Of a stretch of DNA of 64,000 nucleotides, positions 6,398 to 61,830 are shown piece after piece. The notes under the pieces were generated by a model. The model saw only the letters and a list, made by a program, of their open reading frames with translations. It ran no database searches and was not told the DNA's origin. The position numbers and the translations under genes were made by a program. Position 1 is the first letter of the stretch; each line of letters starts with the position of its first letter. Source of the stretch: Patescibacteria group bacterium (lineage in GTDB: Bacteria; Patescibacteriota; Patescibacteriia; JAHIZJ01); the NCBI GenBank assembly GCA_041661625.1, contig JBAZUB010000001.1:523504-587503 (forward strand), read 5' to 3'.

Positions 6398-6874
6398 ATG
6401 CCCAGAGCCGCTAAAAAACTTGTTGCCAAACGATCCCGCCGCGTACCGATTCGCGTACTTGAATCCGCTCCGGAACCGGCCCGGCCGGCGTTAGATGAAA
6501 CATTCCTGGAGCACCGCCCACTCACGAGTGCGGCCGTGAAACCCAAGCCGGACACGGTGGCCAAACGCACTCCGCCGGTTTTTCAATTACCTGACCGGCC
6601 GGCCAGACGCGGCGCCTTGGTCTGGGGAGTGGGTATCAGTTTCATGTTGGTGCTGACGATATGGTTGGGCGTCATGCGCTTCCGGCCCCAGCGATCCGGC
6701 CCTAATTCGGCCGACGAGACAATAGCCAATATCGGACGGGTGCTGTCAGACTTCTCTGACCAATTCGATCAGCAGGTTAATGATGTCAAACAGCAATTGG
6801 ACGACGCCGGCGACCCAACTACGCCGGAAGTCAAGGAGTTGCAGAAACAAGTTTTTCCCGAGTTTATTAAATAA
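6398..6874 (+). CDS. hypothetical single-pass membrane protein
   Basis: Basic N-terminus, one TM (LVWGVGISFMLVLTIWLGV), acidic C-terminus. Sits directly upstream of gyrA. Confidence 0.45.
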   Translation: MPRAAKKLVAKRSRRVPIRVLESAPEPARPALDETFLEHRPLTSAAVKPKPDTVAKRTPPVFQLPDRPARRGALVWGVGISFMLVLTIWLGVMRFRPQRSGPNSADETIANIGRVLSDFSDQFDQQVNDVKQQLDDAGDPTTPEVKELQKQVFPEFIK

Positions 6875-6902
6875 TAGTAATCACAGTTAATATTACCGAC
6901 GT

Positions 6903-9353
6903 ATGACTGAAAATCCCATCGGCACAATTTCACCCCGCCAGATAACGGACGAAATGCAGGAGTCGTATCTCGACTATGCCATGTCCGTGATAGTTTCGCG
7001 CGCCTTGCCGGACGTGCGTGACGGTTTGAAACCGGTCCATCGACGAATCCTCTACGCCATGTGGACGATCGGCTTACGGGCCGGCGCCAAGTTCCGCAAA
7101 TCGGCCAATGTGGTCGGTGAGGTGCTGGGCAAATATCACCCGCACGGGGATATGGCCGTCTACGATTCCATGGTCCGCATGGCCCAGGATTTTTCTCTGC
7201 GCTACCCGCTGATCGAGGGCCAGGGCAACTTCGGTTCGATCGACGGTGACAGCGCGGCCGCCCATCGTTATACCGAGGCCCGGCTTGATCGCATTTCGGA
7301 CGAGATGCTGGGCAGTATTGAAAAGAACACCGTCAACTTCCTGCCCAACTATGACGGCTCGCAACAAGAGCCCCAGGTGTTGCCATCACGGCTGCCCAAT
7401 CTGCTGCTCAATGGCACGATGGGCATTGCCGTCGGCATGGCCACCAGCATTCCGCCGCACCATCTCGGCGAAATCATCGAAGGGACCGTTCACCTAATCG
7501 ACCACCCCAACGCGTCGGTCGAAGACCTGATGCAGTTTATCAAGGGGCCGGACTTTCCGACCGGCGGTCAAATATTTGATATCAATGAAATTTCCCAGGC
7601 CTACGCCACCGGCAAGGGCCGGATTGTGATGCGCGGCAAGTGTGAAATTATCGAAGCCGATTCCGGACGTTTTCAGATTATTGTCAATGAAATACCGTAC
7701 CAGGTAAACAAGGCCCATCTTATCGAACATATCGCCCAGCTGGTCAATGATAAAAAGATCGATGGCATTAGAGACCTGCGCGACGAGTCGGACAAAGATG
7801 GCATCCGGGTGGTGATCGATTTGAAAAAAGACGCCTATCCCAAGAAAGTTCTCAACCGCCTGTATAGCCTGACCGAGCTGCAAACCGCTTTTCACGTCAA
7901 CATGCTGGCGTTAATTGATGGCTTGCAGCCGCGCGTGCTCACGCTCAAGATGGTGCTCGAAGAATACATCAAGCACCAGCAGGAAGTGACCCGGCGCCAG
8001 GCTCAATACGATCTGGATCGAGCCAAAGAGCGGGCCCATGTGTTGGAAGGTCTAAAAATCGCCTTGAGCCATCTGGATGCGGTAATCGCGACGATCAAGA
8101 AGTCGAAAGACAAAGATGAAGCGAAAGTAAACCTAATGAAGCGGTTCAAGCTGACCGAGATCCAGAGCGTCGCCATTCTGGAAATGAAGCTGCAGCAGCT
8201 GGCCAACCTGGAACAGCAAAAGATCCTGGACGAATTAAAAGAAAAGCTGGCCATCATCAAAGATTTGCAGGCATTACTAGCTTCTCCTAAACGGATTCTA
8301 AGCGTTATCAAAGCCGACTTGGCGCGTATCAAAGAGAAATACGGCGATGCCCGGCGTACTCAGGTCTTCCCCAACGCCGTCGATAAATTTACTCAGGAAG
8401 ACCTGATACCAAACACACCGACTATCGTCATGACAACCCATGACGGATATATCAAGCGGGTGGAGCCGGAGTCTTTCCGCACCCAGGGCCGCGGCGGCAA
8501 AGGTGTTATCGGCCTAACCACCAAAGAACAAGACTTCGTGGAACACTTCTTCAGCACCACCACTCATACCGACCTGCTGTTCTTTACTACTAAGGGCCGT
8601 GTCTTCCAGCTTAAGACTTATGATATTCCGCCGGCCAGCCGTACCGCCAAGGGCCAGGCGATAGTAAACTTCCTGCAGCTGCCGAGCGAGGAAAAAGTTT
8701 CAGTAATTCTGCCGATATCGGAATTGAAGGAATACAAATTCCTGACTATGGTCACCCGCGATGGCGTGATCAAGAAGGTCGACATTACTGACTTTGCCAA
8801 GGTGCGGCGTTCTGGTTTGATCGCCATCAAGCTGCGAGCCGATGACATCCTGCAATGGGTCAAACCCACTACCGGACATGACAATCTGATTCTGGTCAGC
8901 GAACAGGGCCAGTCGATTCACTTCCGGGAAAAAGATATTCGAGCTATGGGTCGCAATGCTTCCGGTGTACGCGGCATCCGGTTAAAGAAGAATGACCGAG
9001 TCTCCGGAATGGACGTAATCTCCGAAGGCAAACCGGGACCGAACGAGCAAATCCTGGTAGTGATGGCTAATGGCTTTGGCAAGCGCACCGGTATCAAGAA
9101 CTACAAAGTCCAGGGTCGGGGCGGCAGCGGTATCAAAACCGCCAAAATCACGCCCAAGACCGGCCAGATTTGCGCTGCCTTCATCGTCAATGCCAAACTG
9201 GAACAAAACGATATTATCATTATGTCCGAGCGTGGACAAGTAATCCGCCTGCCGCTCAAATCGGTCTCCGTGCTCGGCCGCGCCACTCAAGGCGTCCGTC
9301 TGATGCGATTCTCCGAGTCAGCGGATAAGGTGGCGTCGGTGACAATCATATAA
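6903..9353 (+). CDS. gyrA: DNA gyrase subunit A
   Basis: [28 protein letters not shown]...GKYHPHGD...IEGQGNFGS and C-terminal beta-pinwheel repeats are unmistakable GyrA. Confidence 0.95.
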
Positions 9354-14241: not shown

Positions 14242-14774
14242 ATCGACGGTTCCGGGGTTCCTGATCTGGTACTCGGGCATCGTATTTCAATCGCAAGGGC
14301 GGATGAAGCACGATGCTCTTTTTTTATTATTATATCGCTTTAGCCTGACTGCTTATTTTACAAAAGTTGGCCCGCTCTTGACATTGTATACAGGTAGTAC
14401 TAAGGTGGAATCAAATTGAATATGTGAGGCGATGAGCTATTGTCTGAATCTGGTCGCTTTCCCTATATAATTGCTAGTCTAAAGGCTTTTATGGAGGGGC
14501 GGACAATAGGGAGCTAGTAGCGAAACCGACACGATTCCACTCGATCATCAGCCTCAATTCGTTGAGGTTTTTGTGTAATATTAGGCATTTTCTCAAGCAT
14601 CCTAGTCTTATCCGAATACAAACCTCGGGTGAGACGGGGTGCTGGAGGGAAACCCGACAGCACCTTGACAACCTGTTTGACAAACATCCAAGTGATAGTA
14701 AAGTTCTGCACAACTGCCGATGGGAATACATCTCAGCGGCCATCCGGTCCGTCCTGATCGAAGGAGGTCTTGTC

Positions 14775-19379: not shown

Positions 19380-22061
19380 ATGTATCTCGAAAAACTCGAA
19401 ATCCAAGGCTTCAAGTCATTCGCCAACCGAGTATCAATGCAATTCAACCGGGGGATCTGCGCGATTGTCGGCCCTAATGGTTCGGGAAAATCCAACGTGG
19501 CCGACGCGGTGCGCTGGGTGATGGGCGAGCAGAGTTTGAAACTGCTGCGCGGTAAAAAGTCCGAAGACGTGATTTTTTCCGGTTCGGATAAGAAAGCTCG
19601 CTTAGGGCTAGCCGAGGTCTCTTTGCATATCAACAACGAGGACAATACTATGCCGATCGACTACCCACAGGTGGTCATCACTCGCCGGGTGTTCCGATCG
19701 GGTGAAAATGAGTACTTATTGAACAATTCCAAGGTCCGACTGCAGGATATAATTCTATTGCTCGCCAAATCCAACTTCGGCCAGCGCAGTTATTCGGTGA
19801 TCGGCCAGGGTATGATTGAATCCGTGCTGACTTCATCACCCCAGGAACGGAAAGAGTTTTTTGATGAAGCCGCCGGCGTGCGCCAATTCCAGATCAAGAA
19901 AGAACAGGCGCAACAGAAACTGGAGCACACTCGAGAGAATCTGCGCCAAGGCGAAATGCTGATGCAGGAAATCGAACCGCGGCTGCGTTCACTCACCCGC
20001 CAGGTCAAACGCCTGGAGCGGCGCGAGACGATCGAACAAGACTTACGCTTGGTACAGAAGGAATACTTCGCCGGGCTGTGGCGGGACATATCCGGCCAGT
20101 TGAGCGAGTTGGATGGTCAGCAGTCAGCCACCAACCAAAGACTGCGGTCGGCTACTAGCGAGCTGCGCGCTGTTCAAACCCAGCTGGAAAAGATCGAGAG
20201 CGAGAGTTCCCGCGAGGATGCTTTCCGCCAATTGCAAAAAGAATACAACCGCTTACTCGACCAAAAAAACACCCTGCTGCAAGACCAAGCCGTACTCAAG
20301 GGCCGCCTGGAAGTCGAAGCCCATCAAGCCGGTGAGACAAATCGGGTCTGGCTGTCAAAACAGGCCGAACAGATCGACCGCCGGATCAAAGAAGTATGTG
20401 ATGATCTAGCACCGATCAATGACCAGCTTAGCGCCGCTCAAACCGCCCTGGAAACCAAGCGAAGCGAACAGGCCGTGGTGGTGACAAAGTTCGAAGAATT
20501 AGAACGCGGTTTGCTGTTGGCTAAGGAGCGCATGGAAACCAGCAAGCCTATTTCGGTAAAAGAGATCCACGACCATCTCAAGGATATCGAGACACGTCAA
20601 GCAAAATTCATAGAGGCGCTCAATGCCGCCCAGACGGTGGAGGATATCGGACGTATCAAAAAGCACGCCCAGGAAATATTCCGCAGTCTGAGCCAGTATT
20701 TAACCGAGTTGAGCCGGTCAGCGCCCGCTTCCGGTACCGATGAAGTAATACGCTTACAACACGAGCTGACCAACTTCTTGAAGAGCCGCGATAGCCTGGT
20801 CAATGAGATCAATGACTGGATCGTCAAAGTACGTATGCTGGAAGACAAGAAAGCCTTATTGATCGAACATCAGAATGAACTGGAACAGGAATTAAATCGT
20901 TTACGACGCGAACTGGAATTGTCCGAAAGCAGTTCCAAACAACCGGCTGAATCGCGCGCCGCTGCCGCCAAAGAGAACCAGAGCCTAAATCAGAGCATCG
21001 AAACCCTAGATCGTGATTTGAAATCGTCTAGAATCAAGATCGAGCAATTCAACCAGGTCGAGCAGCAGAAAAAAGAAGAGCTGTTTGCCCTGCAGAAACA
21101 GTTCCGTGACCGGCAGAATACTCTCAACGCGGTGACCCAGGAATCAAACGAACTGCGGGTCAAACAAGCCCGCCTGGAAACCCGCCGCGACGACCTCGAT
21201 CGGGAAATGCGCGCCGACTTGCCCGAAACATTGTTAATCGAAATACAAAAAGACTTTATAAATATTATCAGCGAATCGCCCGCTTCCGTATTGCTAGAAC
21301 GAATCACCAGCATCAAGCATCAGATCGAGCTGATCGGCGGCATCGACGAGAACGTCAGCTCGGAATATGAGCAGACCAACGAGCGCTTTGAGTTCCTATC
21401 CAAACAGGCCGAGGATCTGCACCAAGCCATTGAGTCATTGGACAAAGGCATCGCCGAGCTGGACGAACAAATCAAGGATCAGTTCGACGAATCGTTTCAA
21501 AAGATCAATACCGAGTTCACCCGGTACTTCAAGATGCTGTTCAAGGGCGGTTCGGCTAAATTAATTTTGAACAGAGAAGAGCTTTTTGAAGACGCCGATG
21601 AGGACGACGAAGATGATGAATTCGATGGCGAAGAAGACGCCACAGAAGAAGCGCCGAAACAACCGAAGAAGCATTCGATTGGCAAAGTCGTCACCGGCAT
21701 TGAAATCCAAGCCATTCCGCCGGGTAAACGGGTCAGCAGCATCAATGTGCTGTCCGGCGGTGAGAAGTCGCTCACTTCCATCGCGCTGATTTGCGCGATC
21801 ATTGCTAATAATCCATCGCCTTTCGTGATCCTGGACGAAGTGGACGCCGCCTTGGACGAATCGAATTCGATTAAGTTCTCGAACATCCTAACCGAGCTGG
21901 CTCACAAGACGCAGTTCATTACCATCACCCACAATCGCGCCACCATGCAACAGGCTTCAATTCTCTACGGCGTTACCATGGGTGCGGACAGCGTGTCGAA
22001 ACTCTTGTCGGTGAAAATGGAAGAGGCCGAAGCGGTCATCAACCAACACGGGAATCGGTAA
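19380..22061 (+). CDS. smc: chromosome segregation protein SMC (short form, 893 aa)
   Basis: Walker A GPNGSGKSN, long coiled coils, hinge, C-terminal signature LSGGEKSLTSIAL and Walker B ILDEVDAALD. Confidence 0.9.
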   Translation: MYLEKLEIQGFKSFANRVSMQFNRGICAIVGPNGSGKSNVADAVRWVMGEQSLKLLRGKKSEDVIFSGSDKKARLGLAEVSLHINNEDNTMPIDYPQVVITRRVFRSGENEYLLNNSKVRLQDIILLLAKSNFGQRSYSVIGQGMIESVLTSSPQERKEFFDEAAGVRQFQIKKEQAQQKLEHTRENLRQGEMLMQEIEPRLRSLTRQVKRLERRETIEQDLRLVQKEYFAGLWRDISGQLSELDGQQSATNQRLRSATSELRAVQTQLEKIESESSREDAFRQLQKEYNRLLDQKNTLLQDQAVLKGRLEVEAHQAGETNRVWLSKQAEQIDRRIKEVCDDLAPINDQLSAAQTALETKRSEQAVVVTKFEELERGLLLAKERMETSKPISVKEIHDHLKDIETRQAKFIEALNAAQTVEDIGRIKKHAQEIFRSLSQYLTELSRSAPASGTDEVIRLQHELTNFLKSRDSLVNEINDWIVKVRMLEDKKALLIEHQNELEQELNRLRRELELSESSSKQPAESRAAAAKENQSLNQSIETLDRDLKSSRIKIEQFNQVEQQKKEELFALQKQFRDRQNTLNAVTQESNELRVKQARLETRRDDLDREMRADLPETLLIEIQKDFINIISESPASVLLERITSIKHQIELIGGIDENVSSEYEQTNERFEFLSKQAEDLHQAIESLDKGIAELDEQIKDQFDESFQKINTEFTRYFKMLFKGGSAKLILNREELFEDADEDDEDDEFDGEEDATEEAPKQPKKHSIGKVVTGIEIQAIPPGKRVSSINVLSGGEKSLTSIALICAIIANNPSPFVILDEVDAALDESNSIKFSNILTELAHKTQFITITHNRATMQQASILYGVTMGADSVSKLLSVKMEEAEAVINQHGNR

Positions 22062-22094
22062 ACTGGTTTCAACCGCCCCCAATTAATTCCGTCA

Positions 22095-22190
22095 TTGCGA
22101 CCCCGCTCAGCGGGGGAAGCAATCCCCATGAAGGTTCACCAAACAATGGGATTGCCGCGCTCGCTGACTCGCTCGCAATGACTGGAATGG
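22095..22190. repeat. complex palindromic intergenic element
   Basis: Outer 11-bp inverted repeat cgtcattgcga/tcgcaatgacg encloses a ccccgctcagcgggg hairpin and a gcaatccc/gggattgc stem. Confidence 0.4.
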
Positions 22191-22273
22191 AAGTGGTTGT
22201 CATGATATAAATAGAGCAAGGCGCGCCCCACCTGGAAACGCGCTTTTTCGTTCTTTACTTTTATCGTAGCGTG

Positions 22274-22642
22274 CTACTGGGTTGGGGCGGCTATCTTTTT
22301 TGGTTTTGACGTCCAAGCGCCCACTATAGTAATAACCGCGATAATCATCTGCTGAACTAATATCGTCACGGCCGTGTTTGTAGACGTAAATTCATCGACC
22401 CGGGCAACCAGATAGAATATGCCCATGATAATCGAAAGGCCAATCACGTAACGGCGCCCTAGCAGTGCAGAAATGAAAAGTATTATCGATAAGATGGTGC
22501 CTAGAATGGTAATTATGTGCTGCCCGAGCGATAACCCCTTGTCTCCGGCGGTTGTGTACACTGTGATCATCCCCCAGACATTAATCGCAGCCAAAATTAG
22601 CAGCAGCGCGATTCCAATCCAACGACGTAGTTTGTGCGACAT
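22274..22642 (-). CDS. small integral membrane protein (3-4 TM)
   Basis: Hydrophobic 122 aa starting MSHKLRRWIGIALLLILAAINVW. Confidence 0.4.
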   Translation of the reverse strand: MSHKLRRWIGIALLLILAAINVWGMITVYTTAGDKGLSLGQHIITILGTILSIILFISALLGRRYVIGLSIIMGIFYLVARVDEFTSTNTAVTILVQQMIIAVITIVGAWTSKPKKIAAPTQ

Positions 22643-22724
22643 GGATGTTTGCCTTTTATTCAAGGTTAATATATAAACTGTACACTCGATTTTGGACCAA
22701 ATCAATAAATCAACATGCCTAATG

Positions 22725-22753
22725 TTGACAAAAACAGCCTGTTTCTGTAATAT
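22725..22753 (+). promoter_or_regulatory. sigma70-type promoter upstream of rpsP
   Basis: TTGACA -17 nt- TAATAT; ~120-nt leader to the rpsP ATG. Confidence 0.5.
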
Positions 22754-22876
22754 CACCATACCATCAATCGGGTTACGAAGGGCAAGTTATAAGTTACGCG
22801 TGTAACGAAAGGCTTGAAACTCTAAGTCACCAAAGTTCCGAACTTAAATCTTGTCATCATAACCTACGACTATTCT

Positions 22877-23347
22877 ATGTTAGCAATTAGACTCTCACCA
22901 ACCGGCAAGAAAGGGCAGAAATTCTTCCGCGTCATCGTCTCCGAAAAAACCAAGGATGTTTTCGGCGACTACATTGAACTGCTCGGCAACTACAATCCGC
23001 ACCCGAATCCGGCTCAGGCGACACTCAAAGCCGAACGGATAAAATATTGGCTGTCTCAAGGAGCTCAAGCCTCGCCCACCGTGCACAATCTTTTGGTAGA
23101 TCAAAAAATAATTGACGAACCGAAAGTGACCAGCTGGAAGCCCAAGAAGAAAGAGGTCAGCCCCGAAGAGGCCACCAAGGCAGCCACCGCTTCCGAGCCA
23201 GCCAAAGCTGAATCGATCGTAGAAGCCACATCAGCACCGGCCGAGCCAGCCCCTGAAGTGACTCCCACGCCTGAACCGATTAAACCCGCGCCAGCCGCCG
23301 AAACTGCGCCGACGCCAGCGCCAGCTGAGCCGAAACCAGCGGAATAG
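22877..23347 (+). CDS. rpsP: 30S ribosomal protein S16 with Ala/Pro/Glu-rich C-terminal extension
   Basis: AIRLSPTGKKGQKFFRVIVSEK...ELLGNYNPHP...KAERIKYWLSQGAQAS matches S16; low-complexity PAPE tail. Confidence 0.85.
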   Translation: MLAIRLSPTGKKGQKFFRVIVSEKTKDVFGDYIELLGNYNPHPNPAQATLKAERIKYWLSQGAQASPTVHNLLVDQKIIDEPKVTSWKPKKKEVSPEEATKAATASEPAKAESIVEATSAPAEPAPEVTPTPEPIKPAPAAETAPTPAPAEPKPAE

Positions 23348-23411
23348 TTCCATCCAAATTTATCATCGATACATCCAGCTCCTACGGGGGCTGGGTTTCG
23401 TTTATCGGGGG

Positions 23412-23440
23412 TTGACAACTATACCCCACACACATATACT
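23412..23440 (+). promoter_or_regulatory. strong sigma70-type promoter driving the RT leader and gene
   Basis: TTGACA -17 nt- TATACT, a near-consensus match. Confidence 0.55.
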
Positions 23441-23446
23441 GGTGCT

Positions 23447-23689
23447 GCCCTACAATACTAACCTTTGGCCCTATTGATGGGTCCTCGGCCCGGGGAGATG
23501 CGACAGGCACTGGTTATGAAGAGGGCTGGCGTACCTTGCAGATGCGCTCCGAGGGGAGCGTTTTCGTACGAGGCGAATCGCAACGCTTCGCGTTTGACCT
23601 GAAGCCTAGGGAGACAGTCGCAGAGGAGCAATCCTTCCCAACGTCTCCCTTCATATTTCTTGATCCTTTCATCATAAGGAGTGTACCCG
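23447..23689 (+). ncRNA. candidate structured non-coding leader / template RNA associated with the reverse transcriptase
   Basis: ~240 nt between the predicted TSS and the RT ATG with no ORF and multiple stable hairpins (agggagac...gtctccct 8 bp; gcgaa-tcgcaacgc-ttcgc; GC-rich stems around cggcccgggg). Ends with SD aaggag. Confidence 0.35.
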
Positions 23690-24793
23690 ATGCTCCGTAG
23701 CAGCCAGAGGTACTATTCGTTCGTCAACCCGCGCCAGTTTGCGCTCCCCTCTGACCCGCGTGTTGTGATGCGGGTGTCGGGCTGTGCAGCACTCCTCAAG
23801 GAGGTGCGGATCGGCCAGGCATTTCTTGCATCGATCCTGACAAATCCTGATCTTCACTGGCATCGCCGCATCGTTACAGGTGGGCGCAGTTCGCGCAAGG
23901 GAAAACAGCGCATTTGTTTCGTGGCAAGCGGCGAGCTCCGGTGGTACCAGAACAGACTGTGGAACCTCATGCGCTATATCCTTTCCGTCCGGAACGGACA
24001 TCTGCTCATCGCGCAAGAGCCGTGCCACTTGTATCGGAACATCAGAACGACCCAGTCGAGTGAGGGAACCGATTTCCCGGCAACAGCATACAACACCGGG
24101 TGCAATGTCATTCGCAACGCCCGATGGCACCGCCACAATCAGTCAAGCTGGTGTCTTGACATCTCGGGTGCATTCGCATCCATCCGCATGAAGCACTTGT
24201 ACCGCTTTCTGCTCCGCAAGCAGTTCCCGCCCGATCTAGCATGGATTATCTGCCGGATGTTCACCTATAACGGCGGACTTCCGCAGGGTGGCCCGTACTC
24301 ACCCTTCATCTACAACCTGCTCATGCAGCGGTTTGATGAAACTGTTGCGGCTGCGATCGGCGCTCCGACGAAAACTGTGACATTCCATCGAGCCAAACTG
24401 GAGGGATTTCCATACAGCGGTCCGATATATACGCGATACGGTGACGACCTCTGCTTCTCCCACCCGGATGAAGAATTCCCTGATGCGCTCAAGGGAACCA
24501 TCGACCGAGTGATAAGAGAACACCACCTGATTCTCAACGCGACAAAAACGCGCGAGGGTAGACATGGGATCATGGAACTTCCTGGCGTGGTGATTGTACA
24601 CGGACGCGTACGGCCACCTTCGGCTTATGTCACCCGTGTATGTACGGCTGCCGACCAAGGAAACCTCACCTCCATTCAGCGCTGCGGACACCGCGGCTAC
24701 CTCCTCACGTTCGGGCGGGCGGGCAGACTCCGATGCCTACGGCAACGGATTAACCTGCGATCCAAGCCGCGCTACGATCAACTTCCGTTCTAA
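23690..24793 (+). CDS. reverse transcriptase (RT domain only; retron/DRT-like, not DGR, no maturase/endonuclease)
   Basis: RT motifs in order: RICFVASGELRWYQNRLWNLMRYIL (motif 1/2-like), NARWH...WCLDISGAFASI (motif 3, catalytic D), LPQGGPYSPFIYNLL (motif 4, QGxxxSP), YTRYGDDLCFS (motif 5, YxDD), LILNATKTREG (motif 6). SD aaggag 8 nt upstream. Own terminator downstream. Confidence 0.8.
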   Translation: MLRSSQRYYSFVNPRQFALPSDPRVVMRVSGCAALLKEVRIGQAFLASILTNPDLHWHRRIVTGGRSSRKGKQRICFVASGELRWYQNRLWNLMRYILSVRNGHLLIAQEPCHLYRNIRTTQSSEGTDFPATAYNTGCNVIRNARWHRHNQSSWCLDISGAFASIRMKHLYRFLLRKQFPPDLAWIICRMFTYNGGLPQGGPYSPFIYNLLMQRFDETVAAAIGAPTKTVTFHRAKLEGFPYSGPIYTRYGDDLCFSHPDEEFPDALKGTIDRVIREHHLILNATKTREGRHGIMELPGVVIVHGRVRPPSAYVTRVCTAADQGNLTSIQRCGHRGYLLTFGRAGRLRCLRQRINLRSKPRYDQLPF

Positions 24794-24806
24794 TCACGCT
24801 TTCAGC

Positions 24807-24832
24807 AACCGGCCGACACAGACCGGTTTTTC
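24807..24832 (+). terminator. rho-independent terminator of the RT gene
   Basis: aaccgg-ccgacacaga-ccggtt followed by ttttt. Confidence 0.55.
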
Positions 24833-25004
24833 TATTGATAACCCAGCCATTTGTGACTAGTTGATTTGGGTGGATTTGACACTACGCCAGAACATTTTAT
24901 AATGAAGCTACTGATGCCAGGCTGTCGTGCCTCTCTCTCCGAGGTTAACACGTCGAAACAGCATCTCCGGCTATCAGCTCGTAACAATTAACCGCAACGA
25001 TGTA

Positions 25005-25343
25005 ATGGCTAAAGAACAAGATCAAGAGTTTGTCGAGTATTGCGTGAAGGGCCTCGTCGACCGTCCGGAAGACGTCACGACCGATCGCATGGTTGATGAA
25101 ATGGGAGTGTTGATCACTCTCAAAGTCAATCCAGAAGATTTGGGCCAGGTGATCGGCCGCCAAGGCCAGACCGCCAAAGCGCTTCGCACGCTGCTCCGGG
25201 TCGTCGGTGCCAAGCACCACGCCCGAGTGAACCTCAAGATCTATGAACCTGAAGGTCACCGTAAGAGCAAGATGATGGAAGAGGCGCCGCAGGAGACGCA
25301 ACCAACCGCGGTTGACGCCGATATGGACGATCTGAAACTATAA
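25005..25343 (+). CDS. KH-domain RNA-binding protein (YlqC/UPF0109-like)
   Basis: LGQVIGRQGQTAKALRTLLRVVG is the KH GxxG core; position between rpsP and trmD is typical. Confidence 0.6.
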   Translation: MAKEQDQEFVEYCVKGLVDRPEDVTTDRMVDEMGVLITLKVNPEDLGQVIGRQGQTAKALRTLLRVVGAKHHARVNLKIYEPEGHRKSKMMEEAPQETQPTAVDADMDDLKL

Positions 25344-25408
25344 CTAGCAGAGGTCAGAAATCGGAAGTTAGAAATCAGAAACCATGTTCCTGATAACGAG
25401 AGGACAAC

Positions 25409-25440
25409 AGCCGCTGGCTTAACTGGCGGTTTTTGTTTTT
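25409..25440 (+). terminator. rho-independent terminator
   Basis: ccgctgg-cttaa-ctggcgg followed by tttttgttttttt. Confidence 0.5.
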
Positions 25441-25486
25441 TTATCGTGAGGACAATTTGCTTGTTTTATGGTACAATTCGGCCAGC

Positions 25487-25597
25487 GATTTGTTGAGAAA
25501 TGTAAAATTGTACAATTCAAAATTCAAAACATGTGATTCCCCGCTGGGCGGGGTTACATTCATTTTGCATTTTGCATTTTACATTTTGAATTGCTTC
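25487..25597. repeat. inverted-repeat / microsatellite element (cattttg units) with central CCCCGCNNNGCGGGG hairpin
   Basis: aattcaaaattcaaaacatg ... ccccgctgggcgggg ... cattttgcattttgcattttacattttgaatt; the two arms are reverse complements. Confidence 0.45.
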
Positions 25598-25598
25598 C

Positions 25599-26270
25599 AT
25601 GCGCTTCGACATCCTGACCACGTTTCCCGATATTTTTGTATCATATTTCAACACCAGCATAATCAACCGCGCCCGGAAGAGCGGCCGAATTAATATAGTC
25701 ATACACGACCTGCGGGATTATACGACCGACAGACACCGCACCACCGACGACCGTCCCTATGGCGGCGGGCCCGGCATGGTGATGAAAGTAGAACCGGTTT
25801 TCAAGGCTTTGAAAAAACTGCGCGCCGTGGCACCGCACAAACTTAAGGATACGAAAGTTATTCTGCTCACACCTCAGGGACGGACTTTTAATCAGCCTAT
25901 CGCCCGCCAATACTCCGAACTCAAACGATTGATCTTTATCTGCGGTCATTATGAGGGTTTCGACGAACGCATTCGCTCACTGGTGGATGAACAGCTGTCG
26001 ATCGGCGACTACGTGCTGACCGGAGGCGAGCTAGGCGCCATGGTCGTAGTGGACGCCGTCAGCCGCTTGCTACCTGGCGTGCTGGGTGATGAAACCTCCA
26101 GCCATGACGAGTCTTTTTCTCAAGATTTAAAGACCCTGGAATACCCCCACTACACCCGCCCGGAAGTATTCCGCCGCCAACGGGTACCGAAGATTTTATT
26201 GTCAGGTGACCATTCAGCCATTGCCAACTGGCGCAAAGCAAATCAGCGTATAAAAAAGCCACGGCCATGA
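25599..26270 (+). CDS. trmD: tRNA (guanine37-N1)-methyltransferase
   Basis: MRFDILTTFPDIF...GGGPGMVMK...SIGDYVLTGGEL is the SPOUT/TrmD signature. Confidence 0.9.
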   Translation: MRFDILTTFPDIFVSYFNTSIINRARKSGRINIVIHDLRDYTTDRHRTTDDRPYGGGPGMVMKVEPVFKALKKLRAVAPHKLKDTKVILLTPQGRTFNQPIARQYSELKRLIFICGHYEGFDERIRSLVDEQLSIGDYVLTGGELGAMVVVDAVSRLLPGVLGDETSSHDESFSQDLKTLEYPHYTRPEVFRRQRVPKILLSGDHSAIANWRKANQRIKKPRP

Positions 26271-26863
26271 AGACCGAAATCGAAGCTAAATTCTTAGACA
26301 TTGATCCGGGCGCGATACGAAATACATTGAAGCAAATTGGAGCACGCTGCGTTTACTCTGAACAATTACAAAAGAGAAAGATTTTCGATTCCCCCGATCA
26401 TCACATGGAGCGGGTTGGCGGCTGTGTTTGGGTTCGTGAAGAAAATGGCAAAATCACATTGGCCTATAAGCAACTTAATAACCGTACACTACAAGGCACA
26501 AAAGAAGTTTCGGTACGGGTAGATGATTTTGATCGTGCTTGTGAATTTCTGCTGGATATTGGATTGGTTCTAAGATCCTACCAGGAAACCCGCCGCGAGC
26601 AGTGGTTATACCAATCGGTTGAGATTACCATTGACACCTGGCCCTGGATACCCACTTTTTTGGAAATCGAGGCACCTACCGAAGTAGAAGTTCGCAAAAC
26701 TGCCGCAGCTTTAGGTTTGGAGTGGGAACGAGCCTTGTTTGGCAGTGTCGAAATCGCGTACCAGCAAAATTATGATGTTACGGAGCAAGAAGTTGATTCT
26801 TGGCCAAGTGCCACTTTCACCGATATTCCTCAGGATTTGCTCAAAAAGCGAAAAAGAAAATAA
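26267..26863 (+). CDS. CYTH-domain protein (class IV adenylate cyclase / triphosphatase fold)
   Basis: N-terminal EIEAKF motif (EXEXK) and acidic strand pattern of CYTH; 4-nt overlap with trmD. Confidence 0.55.
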   Translation: MKTEIEAKFLDIDPGAIRNTLKQIGARCVYSEQLQKRKIFDSPDHHMERVGGCVWVREENGKITLAYKQLNNRTLQGTKEVSVRVDDFDRACEFLLDIGLVLRSYQETRREQWLYQSVEITIDTWPWIPTFLEIEAPTEVEVRKTAAALGLEWERALFGSVEIAYQQNYDVTEQEVDSWPSATFTDIPQDLLKKRKRK

Positions 26864-26866
26864 CTC

Positions 26867-28195
26867 ATGGATGTTCAATCCGAAAACTTGTCCGCATCAC
26901 CCGCCACCCGCACCCATCGTTACGTGAGCATTTTGAGATATCGAAACTTCCTCAAGCTCTGGGGCGCCCAGGCCAGTTCTAAGCTGGCCGAGAATGTACT
27001 AAACTTCAGCCTTGTGATACTGATCTACCAGCTGACCCATTCCAGTTTTATGGTCAGTCTGTTGTTGGTGCTGATTGGCGTACCGCCCATCCTACTATCC
27101 GCGGCAGCGGGCGTGGTTGCCGACACCCATAATCGCAAAACAATCATGTTTTTATCAAACCTGACTCGTTTTTTTCTGGTTGTCATGGCGATCATATTTC
27201 ATGAACAAGCCTGGGTACTGTTGGGAGTCGCCTTTATCCTGTCGGTGCTGGCTCAATTTTTCAGTCCGGCCGAAGTTTCCTCGATTCCCACGCTGGTCGA
27301 CAAGGAGCATTTATTCACGGCTAACAGCATTTACTCATTTACCAGCTATACCACTTTTCTAATCGGCTATACGATTGCCGGCCCGCTGCTTCAGCGCTGG
27401 CACTCCACCAACCTATTTATTTGCGTCATGGTGCTTTACGGCATTGCGTCATTACTGTCGGGCTGGCTGCCTCCCCTTGTTGAGCATCTGCGCGACGCCG
27501 CCCAACGCAGTCTGCGGCTGATTGACTGGGCCGACTTCCGTCATCGCCTGACCGAAGGCATGAGAATAATTCTTACCAACCGGGTCATCCGATTCGTGAT
27601 GATCCAGATGGCTATTGTATTCAGCATCCAGCGCGGCTTCTTATCTATGGCACCGGCCTTCGCTGAAAACTTTTTGAAGTTTAACCTCGACAAGATCAGC
27701 GTTTATTTAATTCTACCCGTCGGCGTCGGCGCGCTTGCGGGCGTCTTGTTAGCCAACACTATCAAGCATCGCGTCGCCAAGAGCCAGATGATCACCGGCG
27801 GCATGATTATCAACGGGCTGGCCCTGCTCTCTTTGGCTTTTTGGACGGCTGGACATTCGGCTCTAACGGCGTTGGGTGTATCAATTTCCCAGGAAGCATT
27901 CGCTCCGATTATTGTATCTATTCTGGCATTTCTATCCGGCTTCGCAGATCCGTTTATTATCGTCTCGGTTCAGACCACCCTCCAGGAACGCACCGAGCCG
28001 GCTGACCGCGGACGGGTCTTCGGCGGATTGTATACCTTTATGAACCTAGCCGGGCTGGCTCCGATTTTGATCATTGGCGCCATTACCAACCTAGTTAATC
28101 TCAACGTTGTCGTCTTGATTCTGGGACTGACTGTTATGACCGCGGCCGTCTGGGGTATCTTCTTCTACCGTCGGTATGGTTTGGGCGCAGAATAG
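26867..28195 (+). CDS. MFS transporter (12 TM)
   Basis: Hydropathy with 12 predicted TM helices, 442 aa, conserved loop 2-3 region. Confidence 0.75.
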   Translation: MDVQSENLSASPATRTHRYVSILRYRNFLKLWGAQASSKLAENVLNFSLVILIYQLTHSSFMVSLLLVLIGVPPILLSAAAGVVADTHNRKTIMFLSNLTRFFLVVMAIIFHEQAWVLLGVAFILSVLAQFFSPAEVSSIPTLVDKEHLFTANSIYSFTSYTTFLIGYTIAGPLLQRWHSTNLFICVMVLYGIASLLSGWLPPLVEHLRDAAQRSLRLIDWADFRHRLTEGMRIILTNRVIRFVMIQMAIVFSIQRGFLSMAPAFAENFLKFNLDKISVYLILPVGVGALAGVLLANTIKHRVAKSQMITGGMIINGLALLSLAFWTAGHSALTALGVSISQEAFAPIIVSILAFLSGFADPFIIVSVQTTLQERTEPADRGRVFGGLYTFMNLAGLAPILIIGAITNLVNLNVVVLILGLTVMTAAVWGIFFYRRYGLGAE

Positions 28196-28228
28196 CCATT
28201 TACTGCCATTTTCCGTAGATTCCATCTT

Positions 28229-29743: not shown

Positions 29744-30114
29744 ACTAGTGCTACAGAAAAGTCGGGGTTTTCAAACAAAACCGTTTAGTATTAACCGGGG
29801 AGACAACATTTGACCCAAGGTTAACCACCATCAGTTCCTTTGACCGCTCGGAGAAAAAACAGGGGTATCAAATCATATTGGGTATCACTGTTTTTTCTTC
29901 GCCCTACGCCAAGGCTACGGGCGACACTGTCCCCCGTACTTTTTGCGAAGTGCTACCGAAGAAAAAATGCACGTTGACAACCGAAAAGTGATAAGAAAGG
30001 CTTCAATCAATTCAATTCCGTCTCCTCAACCGCTTCTCACGAACGGTTTGAGCGAGACAACAAGAAATAATAGAGCTTCATTCCTTAAACGGAATGACAC
30101 TCTCTCATTCTAAT

Positions 30115-31727
<1,613 letters not shown>

Positions 31728-33833: not shown

Positions 33834-33869
33834 GGGCGATTAGCTCAGGTGGTTAGAGCGCGTCACTGA
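33834..33869 (+). pseudogene. exact copy of the 5' half of tRNA-Ile(GAT), nt 1-35, ending within the anticodon
   Basis: gggcgattagctcaggtggttagagcgcgtcactga is identical to the 5' 36 nt of the intact gene at 33929. Confidence 0.7.
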
Positions 33870-33928
33870 CCCGCCTGCCGAAGTAGGGAGAACATTGCCA
33901 GATAAATAGCTGAATTCGCTACCCTCAT

Positions 33929-34005
33929 GGGCGATTAGCTCAGGTGGTTAGAGCGCGTCACTGATAATGACGAGGTCCCAGGTTCGAGTCCTGGATCGCC
34001 CACCA
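33929..34005 (+). tRNA. tRNA-Ile (anticodon GAU), CCA encoded
   Basis: Cloverleaf: acceptor gggcgat/atcgccc, D-arm gctcaggtggttagagc, anticodon arm cgtca-ctGATaa-tgacg, T-arm ccagg-ttcgagt-cctgg, discriminator A, CCA. Confidence 0.9.
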
Positions 34006-34045
34006 GAGCGAAGCAGTTATTTATAGCGTTCGTACGGCGGGCAGG

Positions 34046-34086
34046 TAATGACGAGGTCCCAGGTTCGAGTCCTGGATCGCCCACCA
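34046..34086 (+). pseudogene. exact copy of the 3' half of tRNA-Ile(GAT), nt 36-76 incl. CCA
   Basis: taatgacgaggtcccaggttcgagtcctggatcgcccacca is identical to the 3' 41 nt of the intact gene; together with 33834-33869 it reconstitutes a full tRNA. Confidence 0.7.
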
Positions 34087-34108
34087 GCCTACGCCAAGGC
34101 TTCGTCTG

Positions 34109-36011: not shown

Positions 36012-37631
36012 ATGTTATCAAACGATACCAAACCAAAAAGAGACAACGTGACGCGTTGTTTTTTTATTGTCGATCGTAAACCAAATAGTTTACTTTTGTA
36101 TGCAGTCACTGTTGTGATGATCGGTTTTGTATTTATTTTAACTAACCGTCCCACGCCAGCCAAAGCCGATACGACTCCTGTAATTGACTATGCTCCTAGT
36201 GCCATACAGAACGGTCAGATTGTAACCATTAACGGAACTGGGTTTGGAGTAAAAAGCCCGGTCGAACCCCTACGTTATGACGACTTCCAAGACGGGACGA
36301 TCGGACAACGTATAAATGATCAGGCCAGTGGCGGATGGTTTACACAAGCATTCGTGCACTACCCGTACTATTCAACCGAGTCACAACGCGTTATGGGCGA
36401 CGTCGTTGCTACCCAGCATTATGACGTAACCGACTACAACCAAAATATAGGTTTGCAAGAAATAAACCCGCCCTATAAGCACATGTACACTAGCATGTAC
36501 ATCCACCGGGACGACATCAGCGGTGATGCCAAATACAGCACCAATGTAAAGCTTTGGAGCAGGTTCGAAGCCGATGCGGGTGATTATATTTACCTTCCTC
36601 AAGCCCGCTGTGAGTCCCAACCCAGCAATGGACAGGGCCTCATGGTCGGATACGACCGCAATCAGATTGCCTCATGCAGTACCTGGTATGATATGTCACC
36701 CTGGTGGGAAAACGAGTTCTCGGGTTGGGTGCGTTCGGAAAGATACATTGATGCGGGGACTATAAATGGCAACGATTGGGTGCAGTGGTTTCGTGAAGAT
36801 TTACAGACCGTATCAGAAACGGGTCCTGGATGCGGTAGTCTTTTAGTGACTCCCCTCGATCTTAGTATGCTATATATCGGCAACTATTGGCGAGCTGAAA
36901 ACGCTCAGCAGGAGTCTAAAACATATACCAGCGAACTTTATGTGGACACCACCCAAGCCCGTGTCGAGATCGGCAATACCTCAACCTGGGATACGAACAC
37001 TCATCGTGAGATTCAAATACCCCACACCACTTGGAATGACGACCAGATTCAATTCACCGTCAACCAAGGCACTTTCACCGACGGTGAGTCGGCCTACCTC
37101 TATGTGGTAGATGAGAATGGAGTGGTAAATACCACCGGTTATCCAATTACTTTCGGGGGTATCGCCTCAAATATTCCCCCGGTTTTAGCCAGCATTGGTA
37201 ATAAGTCTCTTCATGAACAAGAGACCCTGACGATCAACGTGTTAGCTTCAGACGATGATCCGGAAGATACGCTGACTCTGTCAGCTTCCAATCTTCCTAC
37301 CGGCGCTACTTTTACAGATAATGATGGTGGATCGGGTGCCTTCTCTTGGACACCGACCGATCAACAGGCCAATATATATTCTAACATACACTTCGAAGTC
37401 ACGGACGGAACCGACACGGATACCGAAGATATTACTATTACCGTATTGGATGGAGCGGCTGACTGTACTCCGGCCTGGGATTGTTCGAATTGGTCTGTTT
37501 GCGCTGATTCGATTCAAACCCGATCCTGCCATGATGACAACAATTGCGGTTCCGATGCCGGACGGCCGGTGGAATCGGCCGAGTGCGACAGTACGGCACC
37601 GGGGGCGGCGGTAGATTTGGTGGCTAGTTAA
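36012..37631 (+). CDS. secreted adhesin-like protein A: signal/TM, IPT/TIG domain, variable middle, cadherin-like (putative Ig) domain, Cys-rich TSP1-like C-terminal module
   Basis: VTINGTGFG (IPT); ...LASDDDPEDTLTLSASNLPTGATFTDNDGGSGAFSWTPTDQQANIYSNIHFEVTDG (dystroglycan-type cadherin-like); CTPAWDCSNWSVCADSIQTRSCHDDNNCG. Confidence 0.7.
   Translation: MLSNDTKPKRDNVTRCFFIVDRKPNSLLLYAVTVVMIGFVFILTNRPTPAKADTTPVIDYAPSAIQNGQIVTINGTGFGVKSPVEPLRYDDFQDGTIGQRINDQASGGWFTQAFVHYPYYSTESQRVMGDVVATQHYDVTDYNQNIGLQEINPPYKHMYTSMYIHRDDISGDAKYSTNVKLWSRFEADAGDYIYLPQARCESQPSNGQGLMVGYDRNQIASCSTWYDMSPWWENEFSGWVRSERYIDAGTINGNDWVQWFREDLQTVSETGPGCGSLLVTPLDLSMLYIGNYWRAENAQQESKTYTSELYVDTTQARVEIGNTSTWDTNTHREIQIPHTTWNDDQIQFTVNQGTFTDGESAYLYVVDENGVVNTTGYPITFGGIASNIPPVLASIGNKSLHEQETLTINVLASDDDPEDTLTLSASNLPTGATFTDNDGGSGAFSWTPTDQQANIYSNIHFEVTDGTDTDTEDITITVLDGAADCTPAWDCSNWSVCADSIQTRSCHDDNNCGSDAGRPVESAECDSTAPGAAVDLVAS
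36951..37603 (+). repeat. copy 1 of ~653-bp segmental duplication (3' 500 bp 100% identical to copy 2)
   Basis: Direct comparison with 38500-39151: ~10 substitutions in the first 150 bp, none thereafter. Confidence 0.85.
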
Positions 37632-37634
37632 AAT

Positions 37635-39173
37635 ATGTCGAGCTTAAACCATAAAAACATCTTAAGAATATTAACACTGATATTTTCTATTGTCGGTAGT
37701 GTTTTTGTTTTGTTTAATTTTCCAACACGGGCTAAGGCGGATACGACTCCTGAAATAATCTTTATGCCTAGTACCATACAGAACGGTCAGAGCGTGACGA
37801 TTAATGGAAGTGGGTTTGGGATAAAATATCCGGTTGAACCAACAAAATGGGATACATTTGACGTTGGTTTAAACGAGGCCCTCCTAGGCTCTACCCAGCC
37901 TGAGTGGATAGCGTTTCAGCAAGGCGGGGCTAAATATGATAGCACATATTATCATAGTGGCCCTTTTTCAGTCGGTAATAAGCTCACCCCAGAATCACAG
38001 TGGGCAACAAATTATTTTCAATTCACACCCACGGATAACATATTCGTTTCTTATTGGTGGCGCACCGCTTACACTGATATCGACGACTATGGCATTACAA
38101 AACTAACCAGAATAACATCAAGCCCAGCCGCAGGTGGAGAAGGTATTTATGACGGGGTCGGCACAACAGCTCTGACCAATATGAATCCACGGTATAATTC
38201 AATACCGTATCTGTTTTATCAAAACACTAGCAGTCCCGTTGCGCCACCATTAGCCGAACTTACCGTTCCTTATAACGAATGGGCGCGAATCGACACCCAC
38301 ACCAAACGTTCGACGGCTGGAGTTTCCGATGGTTCTGTTATGACGGAATGCGTCGGCCATGACATTCATGCGCTGATATCGCAAGAGAACTGCTCAATCG
38401 GATATGACTATCATTGGGACACAGTATTACTTGGTCTGATGGCGGCAAATGTCGCTGGATATTATGAACTGTACTTAGATGACATCTATATTGACACTAC
38501 CCAAGCCCGTGTCGAGATCGGCAATACCTCAACCTGGGATACGAATACCCATCGTGAGATCCAAATACCCCACACCACCTGGAATGACGACCAGATTCAA
38601 TTCACCGTCAACCAAGGTACCTTCACTAATGGTGAGTCGGCCTATCTCTATGTGGTAGATGAGAATGGAGTGGTAAATACCACCGGTTATCCAATTACTT
38701 TCGGGGGTATCGCCTCAAATATTCCCCCGGTTTTAGCCAGCATTGGTAATAAGTCTCTTCATGAACAAGAGACCCTGACGATCAACGTGTTAGCTTCAGA
38801 CGATGATCCGGAAGATACGCTGACTCTGTCAGCTTCCAATCTTCCTACCGGCGCTACTTTTACAGATAATGATGGTGGATCGGGTGCCTTCTCTTGGACA
38901 CCGACCGATCAACAGGCCAATATATATTCTAACATACACTTCGAAGTCACGGACGGAACCGACACGGATACCGAAGATATTACTATTACCGTATTGGATG
39001 GAGCGGCTGACTGTACTCCGGCCTGGGATTGTTCGAATTGGTCTGTTTGCGCTGATTCGATTCAAACCCGATCCTGCCATGATGACAACAATTGCGGTTC
39101 CGATGCCGGACGGCCGGTGGAATCGGCCGAGTGCGACAGTACGGCACCGGGTATTGTATCCGACCTCCGATAA
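37635..39173 (+). CDS. secreted adhesin-like protein B (paralog of A; same IPT N-terminus and identical cadherin-like + Cys-rich C-terminus, different middle)
   Basis: Starts 4 nt after the A stop; the C-terminal 220 aa are identical to A except D->N. Confidence 0.7.
   Translation: MSSLNHKNILRILTLIFSIVGSVFVLFNFPTRAKADTTPEIIFMPSTIQNGQSVTINGSGFGIKYPVEPTKWDTFDVGLNEALLGSTQPEWIAFQQGGAKYDSTYYHSGPFSVGNKLTPESQWATNYFQFTPTDNIFVSYWWRTAYTDIDDYGITKLTRITSSPAAGGEGIYDGVGTTALTNMNPRYNSIPYLFYQNTSSPVAPPLAELTVPYNEWARIDTHTKRSTAGVSDGSVMTECVGHDIHALISQENCSIGYDYHWDTVLLGLMAANVAGYYELYLDDIYIDTTQARVEIGNTSTWDTNTHREIQIPHTTWNDDQIQFTVNQGTFTNGESAYLYVVDENGVVNTTGYPITFGGIASNIPPVLASIGNKSLHEQETLTINVLASDDDPEDTLTLSASNLPTGATFTDNDGGSGAFSWTPTDQQANIYSNIHFEVTDGTDTDTEDITITVLDGAADCTPAWDCSNWSVCADSIQTRSCHDDNNCGSDAGRPVESAECDSTAPGIVSDLR
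38500..39151 (+). repeat. copy 2 of ~653-bp segmental duplication
   Basis: See copy 1. Confidence 0.85.
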
Positions 39174-39319
39174 AGCAGTTATAAATTACATTAAATCAAT
39201 CTGGGCATATTTTACCGATGGGGCTATTTAAGGTACAATGTTTAACCATCAGGACTACGATAAGATAATCATATAGTACCCAACTATCGAAACATGGAGC
39301 CAAACAACAAACGAATTCA

Positions 39320-61577: not shown

Positions 61578-61600
61578 AACACCCCGCTCGGGGGTGAATG
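61578..61600 (-). terminator. rho-independent terminator of the tRNA-Val transcription unit (minus strand)
   Basis: cacccc-gagc-ggggtg followed on the minus strand by ttttgg. Confidence 0.4.
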
Positions 61601-61610
61601 TGGGCAAATA

Positions 61611-61679
61611 TTATCCTTGGTGGGCGATAGAGGAATCGAACCTCTGTCCGGGGTGCGCCGGTCAGAACAACGGCACACC
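61611..61679 (-). pseudogene. tRNA 3'-end-derived fragment (T-arm + acceptor atcgccc + CCA) fused to a repeat also found at 62750-62781
   Basis: Minus strand: acgggtgtgccgttgttctgaccggcgcaccccggacagaggttcgattcctctatcgcccacca. The acceptor 3' strand matches tRNA-Ile (gggcgat). Confidence 0.4.
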
Positions 61680-61756
61680 CGTCGTGGCCCGCGCAAAGGC
61701 AAGCAGTTGCCTTTGCTTGTCACCACAACCCTCCACAACCCGCCCGCCAAAGCTTG

Positions 61757-61830
61757 TGGGCGGCACAAGAGTTGAACTTGTGACCTCCACAATGTCAATG
61801 TGGCGCTCTAACCAACTGAGCTAGCCGCCC
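61757..61830 (-). tRNA. tRNA-Val (anticodon GAC)
   Basis: gggcggc-ta-gctcagttggttagagc-g-ccaca-ttGACat-tgtgg-aggtc-acaagttcaactcttgt-gccgccc-a. Confidence 0.85.

Follow-up and report, generated by a model that had tools for sequence, protein, structure and literature searches.

A retron-related reverse transcriptase and its conserved upstream RNA, inserted between rpsP and khpA in a Patescibacteria genome

The subject of this analysis is a reverse transcriptase (RT) gene, together with the non-coding RNA (ncRNA) encoded just upstream of it, located between rpsP and khpA in the genome of a Patescibacteria group bacterium (assembly GCA_041661625.1). The window, that is the whole stretch of DNA analysed, comprises 64,000 nt of contig JBAZUB010000001.1. 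The analysis established that the two lie in an inserted cassette, that the RT belongs to the retron-related class and to a family of its own, that the RNA is conserved and covarying, and that no effector is linked to the pair. A first-pass annotation of the window had proposed a stand-alone RT with a structured RNA upstream, a description that was borne out.

The inserted cassette and its reverse transcriptase

The genes and features at the locus, in window coordinates, are:

22877-23347: rpsP (Ribosomal_S16 match)
23350-24797, plus strand: inserted cassette, approximate extent relative to the empty rpsP-khpA spacer of relatives; left end at about 23350 or 23365, boundaries approximate
23373-23396, plus strand: hairpin with T-rich tail, a terminator-like insulator immediately behind the rpsP stop codon, where the insertion has its left edge
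23412-23440, plus strand: sigma-70-type promoter-like site TTGACA-17-TATACT, 11 of 12 positions matching
23676-23681, plus strand: Shine-Dalgarno AAGGAG of the RT gene, read from the sequence
23690-24793, plus strand: RT gene, 367 aa, retron-related but of a separate family
24811-24836, plus strand: intrinsic terminator after the RT (hairpin and T-run), from the terminator scan; aligns with the rpsP terminator region of locus L183
25005-25343: khpA
25599-26270: trmD

Domain matches of the flanking genes confirmed the rpsP and khpA/trmD neighbourhood given to the RT in the first pass. The empty site was sought in the loci that encode the most similar TrmD proteins. No RT separates rpsP from khpA in L183 (TrmD 87% identity), L184 (74%), L185 (69%) or L187/L188 (67%), where the gene order is SMC or other genes, rpsP, khpA and trmD. 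Since khpA directly follows rpsP in these related genomes, about 1.4 kb has been inserted here; the insertion into this spacer, as first proposed, is thus supported by an empty site in four relatives. A blastn comparison with L183 aligned 22724-23328 and 24876-28197 of the window; between the two blocks, L183 has a spacer of 147 nt and the window one of 1548 nt. In a local alignment, window positions 24798-24858 correspond to the native rpsP 3′ untranslated region (UTR) and terminator of L183. Judged from these alignments, the simplest history is that an insertion of about 1.4 kb separated the rpsP stop codon from the gene's native terminator; the inserted segment would comprise the hairpin, promoter, RNA and RT, with exact ends that are uncertain.

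The RT had been credited with a terminator of its own. A hairpin with a T-run is indeed present at 24811-24828, but it aligns to the native rpsP terminator of L183 and is probably that terminator, displaced. The hairpin at 23373-23396 has a 10-bp stem with six G-C pairs in the terminator scan and aligns weakly to the L183 spacer; on the simplest history it would now terminate rpsP while the RT uses the old rpsP terminator. The near-consensus promoter reported in the first pass stands. Seven promoter-like sites are found in the region against 2.4 ± 1.3 in shuffles, and in at least six other family loci promoter-like hexamers were seen by eye in the corresponding position, some 30-50 nt ahead of the outer helix of the RNA. 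We note that the TTGACA at 23412-23417 and that at 24876-24881, in the khpA promoter, both align to a single TTGACA of L183; this doubling could have arisen by a short duplication as the cassette went in, or two -35 boxes may match by coincidence. We also note an in-frame GTG upstream of khpA at 24927, giving 138 aa as in the L183 gene call; the ATG at 25005 gives 112 aa.

The RT open reading frame (ORF) matches Pfam RVT_1 with E=4e-15 (56.5 bits, cutoff 29.6). The intact frame with a full set of RT motifs described in the first pass is supported by this match and by the presence of CLDISGAF, LPQGGPYSP, YTRYGDD and NATKT; the catalytic D157 and D252 are invariant in 42 family members. Our assignment of the ATG at 23690 as the start relies on the AAGGAG at 23676-23681. 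An in-frame GTG is also present at 23681, and the public gene call P0001 (341 aa) starts 26 codons later, losing an N-terminus that is conserved in relatives. The domain search returned nothing besides RVT_1 and, in particular, no maturase, endonuclease or integrase domain.

All 25 of the best PADLOC matches are retron RT models (III-A, Ec107-like, VI and II-A, all near 1e-24), and all seven PDB sequence matches are retron RTs. Among NCBIfam models, retron_St85_RT gave 1.3e-25 (90.3 bits, cutoff 235), Ec67 8e-18 (64 bits, cutoff 450) and TIR-retron 4e-14; the group II RT/maturase model TIGR04416 gave 2e-8 (33.7 bits, cutoff 300), Drt2 3.5e-6 (26.4 bits, cutoff 390) and Drt3a 17.3 bits (cutoff 200). 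An AlphaFold2 (AF2) model of the RT was built on the family alignment (pLDDT 85.3, pTM 0.83); the first 14 of its PDB fold matches are all retron RTs (7v9x, E=1.9e-14), among them Ec86, Eco2/Ec67, type I-A, Eco7, Ec83, Eco8 and Ec78. G2L4 (rank 15), DRT2 and DRT9 (ranks 20 and 26), and the RTs of diversity-generating retroelements (DGRs) and group II introns rank behind. By sequence and predicted fold the RT is therefore closest to retron RTs. The first-pass annotation had suggested either a retron or a defence-associated RT (DRT/UG class); the PADLOC, NCBIfam and PDB matches uphold the former, and the marginal Drt2 and Drt3a scores do not uphold the latter.

Even so, the RT lies outside every described retron type. 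Together with three other family members it scores 85-100 bits on any PADLOC retron-type model, less than half of what retron types score on each other's models; ordinary retron RTs drawn from the tail of the family search reach 190-400 bits, including on types not their own. Retron models from the curated sets are its best matches, yet the scores fall well below the NCBIfam cutoffs. The family was delimited by an exhaustive phmmer search of 1.84 billion representatives, in which about 55 clusters stand at E≤1e-20, separated by a gap from the generic retron RTs that follow at E≥1e-15. We conclude from these scores that it appears to be a small, undescribed sister group of retron RTs. Its signatures are NAxxHR.NRSS, LRQGAPxSP, YTRYGDDLCFS, FPGVVIV.GRIRP and a C-terminal GHRGFL.QFGR.GR. 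Region X (NAxxH, between RT2 and RT3) and the VTG motif are defined in PMC7736814. The former is NARWH here (residues 143-147, with N143, A144 and H147 invariant in the 42 members); at the VTG position the window RT has LPG and the family consensus is (F/L)PGV, with an invariant G299 and a nearly invariant P298. The family has only two named hosts, the window genome and a Ca. Saccharibacteria (L003), and no member was found on the viral contigs searched. The family is not described in the literature that we searched on retrons and retroelements in Patescibacteria, the candidate phyla radiation (CPR) and Saccharibacteria, nor did that literature yield an account of any retron-type element from these groups.

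The nearest relatives outside the family are Arg/Trp-rich RTs of about 300 aa (L004-L010, from Planctomycetota metagenome-assembled genomes, and P0003-P0007), which have a canonical VTG and IYTRYGDDLTFSW. They too look unclassified, since they score about 190 bits, roughly equally, on many retron-type models.

The upstream RNA

The leader of the RT gene is free of ORFs, as first described. Of its 240 nt, which had been taken to be structured throughout, the conserved RNA is a 159-nt core with the following elements, all on the plus strand:

23492-23650: conserved ncRNA core, 159 nt, closed by helix P1a (from 13-locus architecture, covariation, minimum free energy (MFE) folding and nhmmer)
23492-23498: P1a 5′ strand GGGGAGA (a1-like), pairs with 23644-23650
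23499-23504: P1b 5′ strand TGCGAC, six Watson-Crick pairs with 23617-23622
23544-23561: hairpin H, 7-bp stem with a GAGG loop closed by C-G (C-GNRR-G), core of covariance model R1
23577-23594: ATCGCAAC motif, then a small CTTCG-type hairpin (AACGC TTC GCGTT)
23617-23622: P1b 3′ strand GTCGCA
23623-23636: hairpin Px (GAGGA GCAA TCCTT), between the 3′ strands of P1b and P1a
23644-23650: P1a 3′ strand TCTCCCT (a2-like), 39 nt before the RT start codon

These elements were located by comparing the 13 loci that hold a family RT and enough upstream sequence (the window, L001, L003, L018-L020, L022-L024, L098-L100 and L102). The helices occur in the same order in all 13: P1a, P1b, the C-GNRR-G hairpin, the P1b 3′ strand, Px and the P1a 3′ strand. 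In P1a the 5′ strand is always rich in G and the 3′ strand in C, the latter ending 31-48 nt short of the RT start codon. The junction between P1a and P1b is A-rich and 0-6 nt long (TAA, TA, CA, CTAAG or none), the C-GNRR-G hairpin, part of a conserved inner domain that P1b encloses, follows P1b after 34-65 nt, and Px sits 0 or 1 nt after the P1b 3′ strand with a sequence that is unrelated between subfamilies. P1a is found as GAGGAGG/CCTCCTC, GGGGAT/ATCCCC, TGGGAT/ATCCCA, CAGGGGTG/CACCCCTG and others. P1b is present in every locus with nine different sequences, among them TGCGAC/GTCGCA, GACGCG/CGCGTC, TGGCAGA/TCTGCCA, GGCATT/AATGCC, GTCGGAAA/TTTCCGAC and AAACACGA/TCGTGTTT. The helix sequences thus vary between subfamilies with complementarity kept. 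The ATCGCAAC motif and small hairpin were also recognised by eye in alignments of L019, L020, L022 and L024.

Base pairs were counted on the five junction-proximal positions of each helix, in curated blocks joined by artificial A-linkers; blocks were used because global MAFFT alignments of the leaders lost the helix register. Standard pairs fill 98.8% of the cells of this alignment; column shuffles give 63%, and sliding the partners gives 33-38%. Both sides change in 18 of 20 pairs, and the covariation score of 1.04, against 0.27, was reached by none of 500 shuffles. The unconstrained MFE structure of the P1a-to-P1a segments contains the curated helices, its energy equalling that of the constrained fold in seven of the 13 loci and lying within about 1 kcal/mol in five more.

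The RNA of the window was also recovered by models built from the other loci. An nhmmer profile from five of them placed 23521-23636 as the top window match (E=0.012); profiles from all 12 did not find the window. Covariance model R1, restricted to the well-aligned central domain and built from ten other loci with the window excluded, returned 23516-23604 as the top match in the 64-kb window (23 bits, E=0.006; next match E=0.88). Run on 323 kb of control loci, ordinary retron loci included, R1 gave no match at E≤1. A composite descriptor of the architecture was applied to 15 family-locus records, two of them (L002 and L025) duplicating the window and L020, and matched 11; each match ends 32-47 nt upstream of the RT start, for an expectation of about 0.02 at that position. 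Rfam holds no known RNA family matching 22000-26500, even at E≤10. From the comparison of related loci we conclude that the leader is a conserved, covarying RNA; conserved structure and covariation among homologous loci, on which the first-pass proposal hung, were looked for, and the leader passed in its helices, its covariation and R1.

Px occupies the position of the msd hairpin of retrons; it is about 13 bp long in L023 and 5-8 bp in the other 12 loci. A long msd stem was not identified in the leader. Upstream of Px is a variable region of 53-110 nt with further hairpins, which could be part of an msd. Duplex prediction on the long leader arms was uninformative. One earlier candidate for a1/a2, the 15-nt inverted repeat 23508-23522/23669-23683 (80% complementary), was dropped, as the family comparison puts the outer helix at 23492-23498/23644-23650. 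Its 3′ arm lies over the RT Shine-Dalgarno, and the repeat could offer an alternative pairing that controls RT translation.

Gene context and interpretation of the cassette

No effector gene recurs beside the RT, and the neighbours differ in every locus context examined: rpsP/khpA, L10/L12 with 23S rRNA, L27/PyrG/L9, SecA, QueF with dCMP deaminase, LepA, an ABC transporter and a tRNA. The cassettes of L099, L100 and L102 are syntenic, all lying between L27 and PyrG, and the RT (67-86% aa identity) has diverged alongside PyrG (83%) and L9 (72%); the ncRNA is more conserved, at 87-96% nt identity. This synteny and parallel divergence indicate that the cassette has been inherited vertically and under selection, which has constrained the RNA no less than the protein. 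Between L020 and L022 the flanks are unrelated, yet the cassettes are 83% identical over a stretch that begins at the promoter and runs 120 nt beyond the RT. As these flanks differ and the window cassette is absent from relatives, the element is evidently gained and lost, and can persist. Nothing here points to the anti-phage role that the first pass had entertained: no effector was found, there is no defence-island context, and inheritance is vertical in one lineage.

The surroundings of the L022 cassette show two further repeats. A 150-aa ORF, a terminator and the 32-nt promoter upstream of the cassette are duplicated (3157-3737 and 6699-7283, 89% identity); the second copy has no ncRNA or RT, and homology stops near the expected transcription start. 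A 68-nt segment just past the RT terminator (5126-5193) is repeated about 830 nt downstream (5953-6020).

Retrons consist of an msr-msd ncRNA, an RT and an effector, and have been classified into types I-XIII by Mestre et al. 2020 (PMC7736814). An associated effector gene or fused effector domain is found in about 75% of them, and about a quarter of retron-like RTs have no recognised partner (PMC8632793). On balance we favour reading the cassette as a self-contained, divergent, effector-less retron-like RT-ncRNA element. We adopt a retron-like working model because a terminal helix closes a structured RNA directly upstream of a retron-like RT, in one transcript. Beyond the RT itself, with its region X motif and the conserved G of region Y, the likeness to retrons extends to an ncRNA on the same strand whose ends pair as a1/a2 do, to internal hairpins followed by one adjoining the 3′ arm, and to a cassette of about 1.4 kb.

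By analogy with retrons we infer RT-RNA binding, cDNA synthesis, a mode of priming and a biological role. The promoter would drive a single transcript holding the ncRNA and the RT message. The RT would bind the folded leader of the transcript that encodes it, recognising it through the inner domain. It would then reverse-transcribe Px and what lies beyond, the segment immediately 5′ of the P1a 3′ strand, as a short cDNA; the position of Px is where, in retron topology, reverse transcription would start. The short cDNA would stay bound in the RT-RNA complex. With no effector in the module, the RT-RNA(-DNA) complex may act by itself or with unlinked host factors.

Several observations weigh against this retron-like reading or against the RNA on which it leans. 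The fold energy of the window leader is at chance (z=-0.87; 35 of 200 shuffles fold as well), so that its being hairpin-dense, as first described, is not by itself evidence of structure, and it is only the related loci that lend support. The covariation count is partly circular, because the blocks were chosen by complementarity. R1 missed two left-out family loci, L003 and L018, in which the loop is one nucleotide longer, and no such RNA is recognisable in the RT subfamily of L021. The composite descriptor is loose, with about one match per 25 kb in 2.36 Mb of unrelated sequence, and is thus informative only when combined with the constant spacing to the RT start. Px is short compared with the 10-50 bp msd stem of retrons, and no G stands at a fixed position after P1a as a branch point in the 13 loci, the junction being A-rich. 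In retrons the VTG triplet contacts msr and directs the RT to it; the literal triplet is absent here, the family having (F/L)PG instead, but the G, the best conserved of its residues, is retained. To our knowledge all retrons characterised so far work with an effector, and here neither an effector gene nor a fused domain accompanies the RT. Other differences from retrons are the second closing helix P1b, which makes a three-way junction of the family RNA, and the extra N-terminal helical region of about 50 aa and family-specific insertions of the RT. The named hosts are also unusual, as Patescibacteria and Saccharibacteria are groups where DGRs, and not retrons, dominate the RT repertoire (DGRs are about 80% of CPR RTs; PMC8632793).

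A bolder proposal, which we put forward tentatively and hold to be less likely than a divergent retron-like element, goes further. The family may form a separate, Patescibacteria-associated class of retron-derived, effector-less RT-ncRNA elements. Its three-way-junction RNA would be a new RT template or scaffold. Either the RT-RNA(-cDNA) complex would be the functional end product, as a minimal defence, regulatory or maintenance device for reduced genomes, or the cassette would be a new autonomous retroelement that lands by terminators. From sequence comparison, what appears to be new is a family of retron-related RTs that come without an effector and are paired with an ncRNA of distinctive architecture; we regard the comparative evidence as solid, and to find no effector is unusual. 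Each retron characterised to date is understood as a three-part, toxin-antitoxin-like defence system; a retron-related RT and a covarying ncRNA that persist for long in tiny symbiotic genomes without an effector raise the question of what the two do alone. The family may represent an ancestral or a reduced state of retrons. It also offers a candidate structured RNA family absent from Rfam, and compact RT-ncRNA pairs from an unexplored lineage may be of interest as retron-type genome-editing tools. Should the cassette be only a divergent retron with an unlinked effector, the gain would be limited to extending retron diversity to Patescibacteria.

The retron-like reading has to be set against four other explanations. 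The best of these, which we nevertheless judge unlikely, is a domesticated stand-alone host RT, active for example in DNA repair as G2L4 is; the leader would be a cis- or autoregulatory 5′ UTR bound by the RT and not a template, and no msDNA-like product would be made. Like G2L4 and other stand-alone host RTs, the window RT is chromosomal, has no mobility or effector domains and is inherited vertically in at least one lineage. The syntenic cassettes of L099, L100 and L102, diverged in step with host genes, suit such a role, as do the constant setting among housekeeping genes, with no effector or defence-island context, the place of G2L4 among the fold matches and the inverted repeat over the Shine-Dalgarno, which could serve translational control. 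Against this, the four relatives of the window genome that have no cassette show it to be dispensable, and the same cassette occurs in the unrelated contexts of L020 and L022. G2L4 is group II-like and ranks below 14 retron structures, so that retron RTs are clearly closer, and the layout seen here, where a terminal helix closes an RNA that immediately precedes the RT, is that of a retron template. We know of no report of G2L4 with a dedicated, conserved upstream ncRNA.

The precise insertion between a stop codon and its terminator invites an explanation by mobility, to which we give somewhat less credence than to a host RT. An autonomous retroelement would have its RNA-plus-RT transcript copied to DNA and integrated in intergenic spacers by terminators or promoters, spreading selfishly. 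The shared cassette of L020 and L022 in unrelated flanks fits this, as does the paralogous upstream copy in L022 (ORF, terminator and 32-nt promoter) that has no RNA and RT; by eye, the cassette stands just after a terminator in seven loci. The RT, however, has no endonuclease, integrase or maturase domain, and shared terminal repeats or target-site duplications were not found. The cassette ends vary, with the promoter included in L020/L022 and an extra upstream hairpin in the window. No examined contig carries more than one copy, no family member was found on viral contigs, and one lineage inherits the cassette vertically.

A DRT/UG-type defence RT with a non-retron use of its ncRNA is more doubtful again. 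It would make repeated cDNA by rolling circle, encoding a toxic product as DRT2 does, or a homopolymer as DRT9 does. The architecture agrees: DRT2 (UG2) and DRT9 are likewise single RT genes with an adjacent structured ncRNA, their template, and no separate effector protein; both are among the fold matches, and a closing helix that joins the RNA ends would suit template jumping. Those systems, however, belong to the UG/Abi RT lineage, for which the window RT has only marginal scores (Drt2 26 bits against 390, Drt3a 17 bits), and retron RTs score and superpose better. The circular P1a-to-P1a unit has stops in all six frames in eight of 13 loci and a length that is not a multiple of three in six, and these stops exclude a conserved neo-like ORF on that unit, from which the true template boundaries may differ. 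Nor does anything here point to defence.

Finally, a group II intron remnant, or a DGR RT whose other parts lie elsewhere, is highly improbable, as the first-pass annotation had argued: the generic RT domain and the group II model match (E=2e-8) are offset by a group II score far below its cutoff, a motif 4 of the QGxxxSP form and an upstream RNA conserved with the RT as a unit. The group II intron was rejected because Rfam detects no group II domain between 22000 and 26500, at thresholds up to E≤10, and because neither a maturase nor an endonuclease domain is present. The DGR was rejected with no template/variable (TR/VR)-type repeat pair involving the region in the 64-kb window and no Avd-like ORF, and DGR folds rank lower than those of retron RTs, G2L4 and DRT2.

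Other features of the window

Elsewhere in the window a tRNA-Ile(GAT) gene (33835-34087, plus strand) appears to be split in the anticodon loop, with its 5′ half at 33835-33870 and its 3′ half at 34046-34087. The 175-nt insert holds a complete, identical tRNA-Ile(GAT) (33929-34005), and its ends, CCCGCCTGCCG and CGGCGGGCAGG, are complementary; the arrangement looks like a tRNA nested within a tRNA. On the minus strand at 61600-62820, a 40-nt tRNA-Val fragment is repeated 54 nt apart (61793-61832 and 61847-61886, 95% identical), and a 73-nt repeat (61648 and 62739, 81% identical) flanks both tRNA-Val genes. The 16S rRNA gene (30109-31725, plus strand) spans 1617 nt against 1533 model positions, which suggests that it carries an insertion; insertions are common in Patescibacteria rRNA. 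A match to the c-di-GMP-II riboswitch aptamer (14416-14540, plus strand) scores 53.5 bits, exactly the Rfam gathering threshold. Two to three tandem paralogous copies occupy 36121-41109, with a period of 1548-1937 nt and 74-96% identity over blocks of 150-300 nt.

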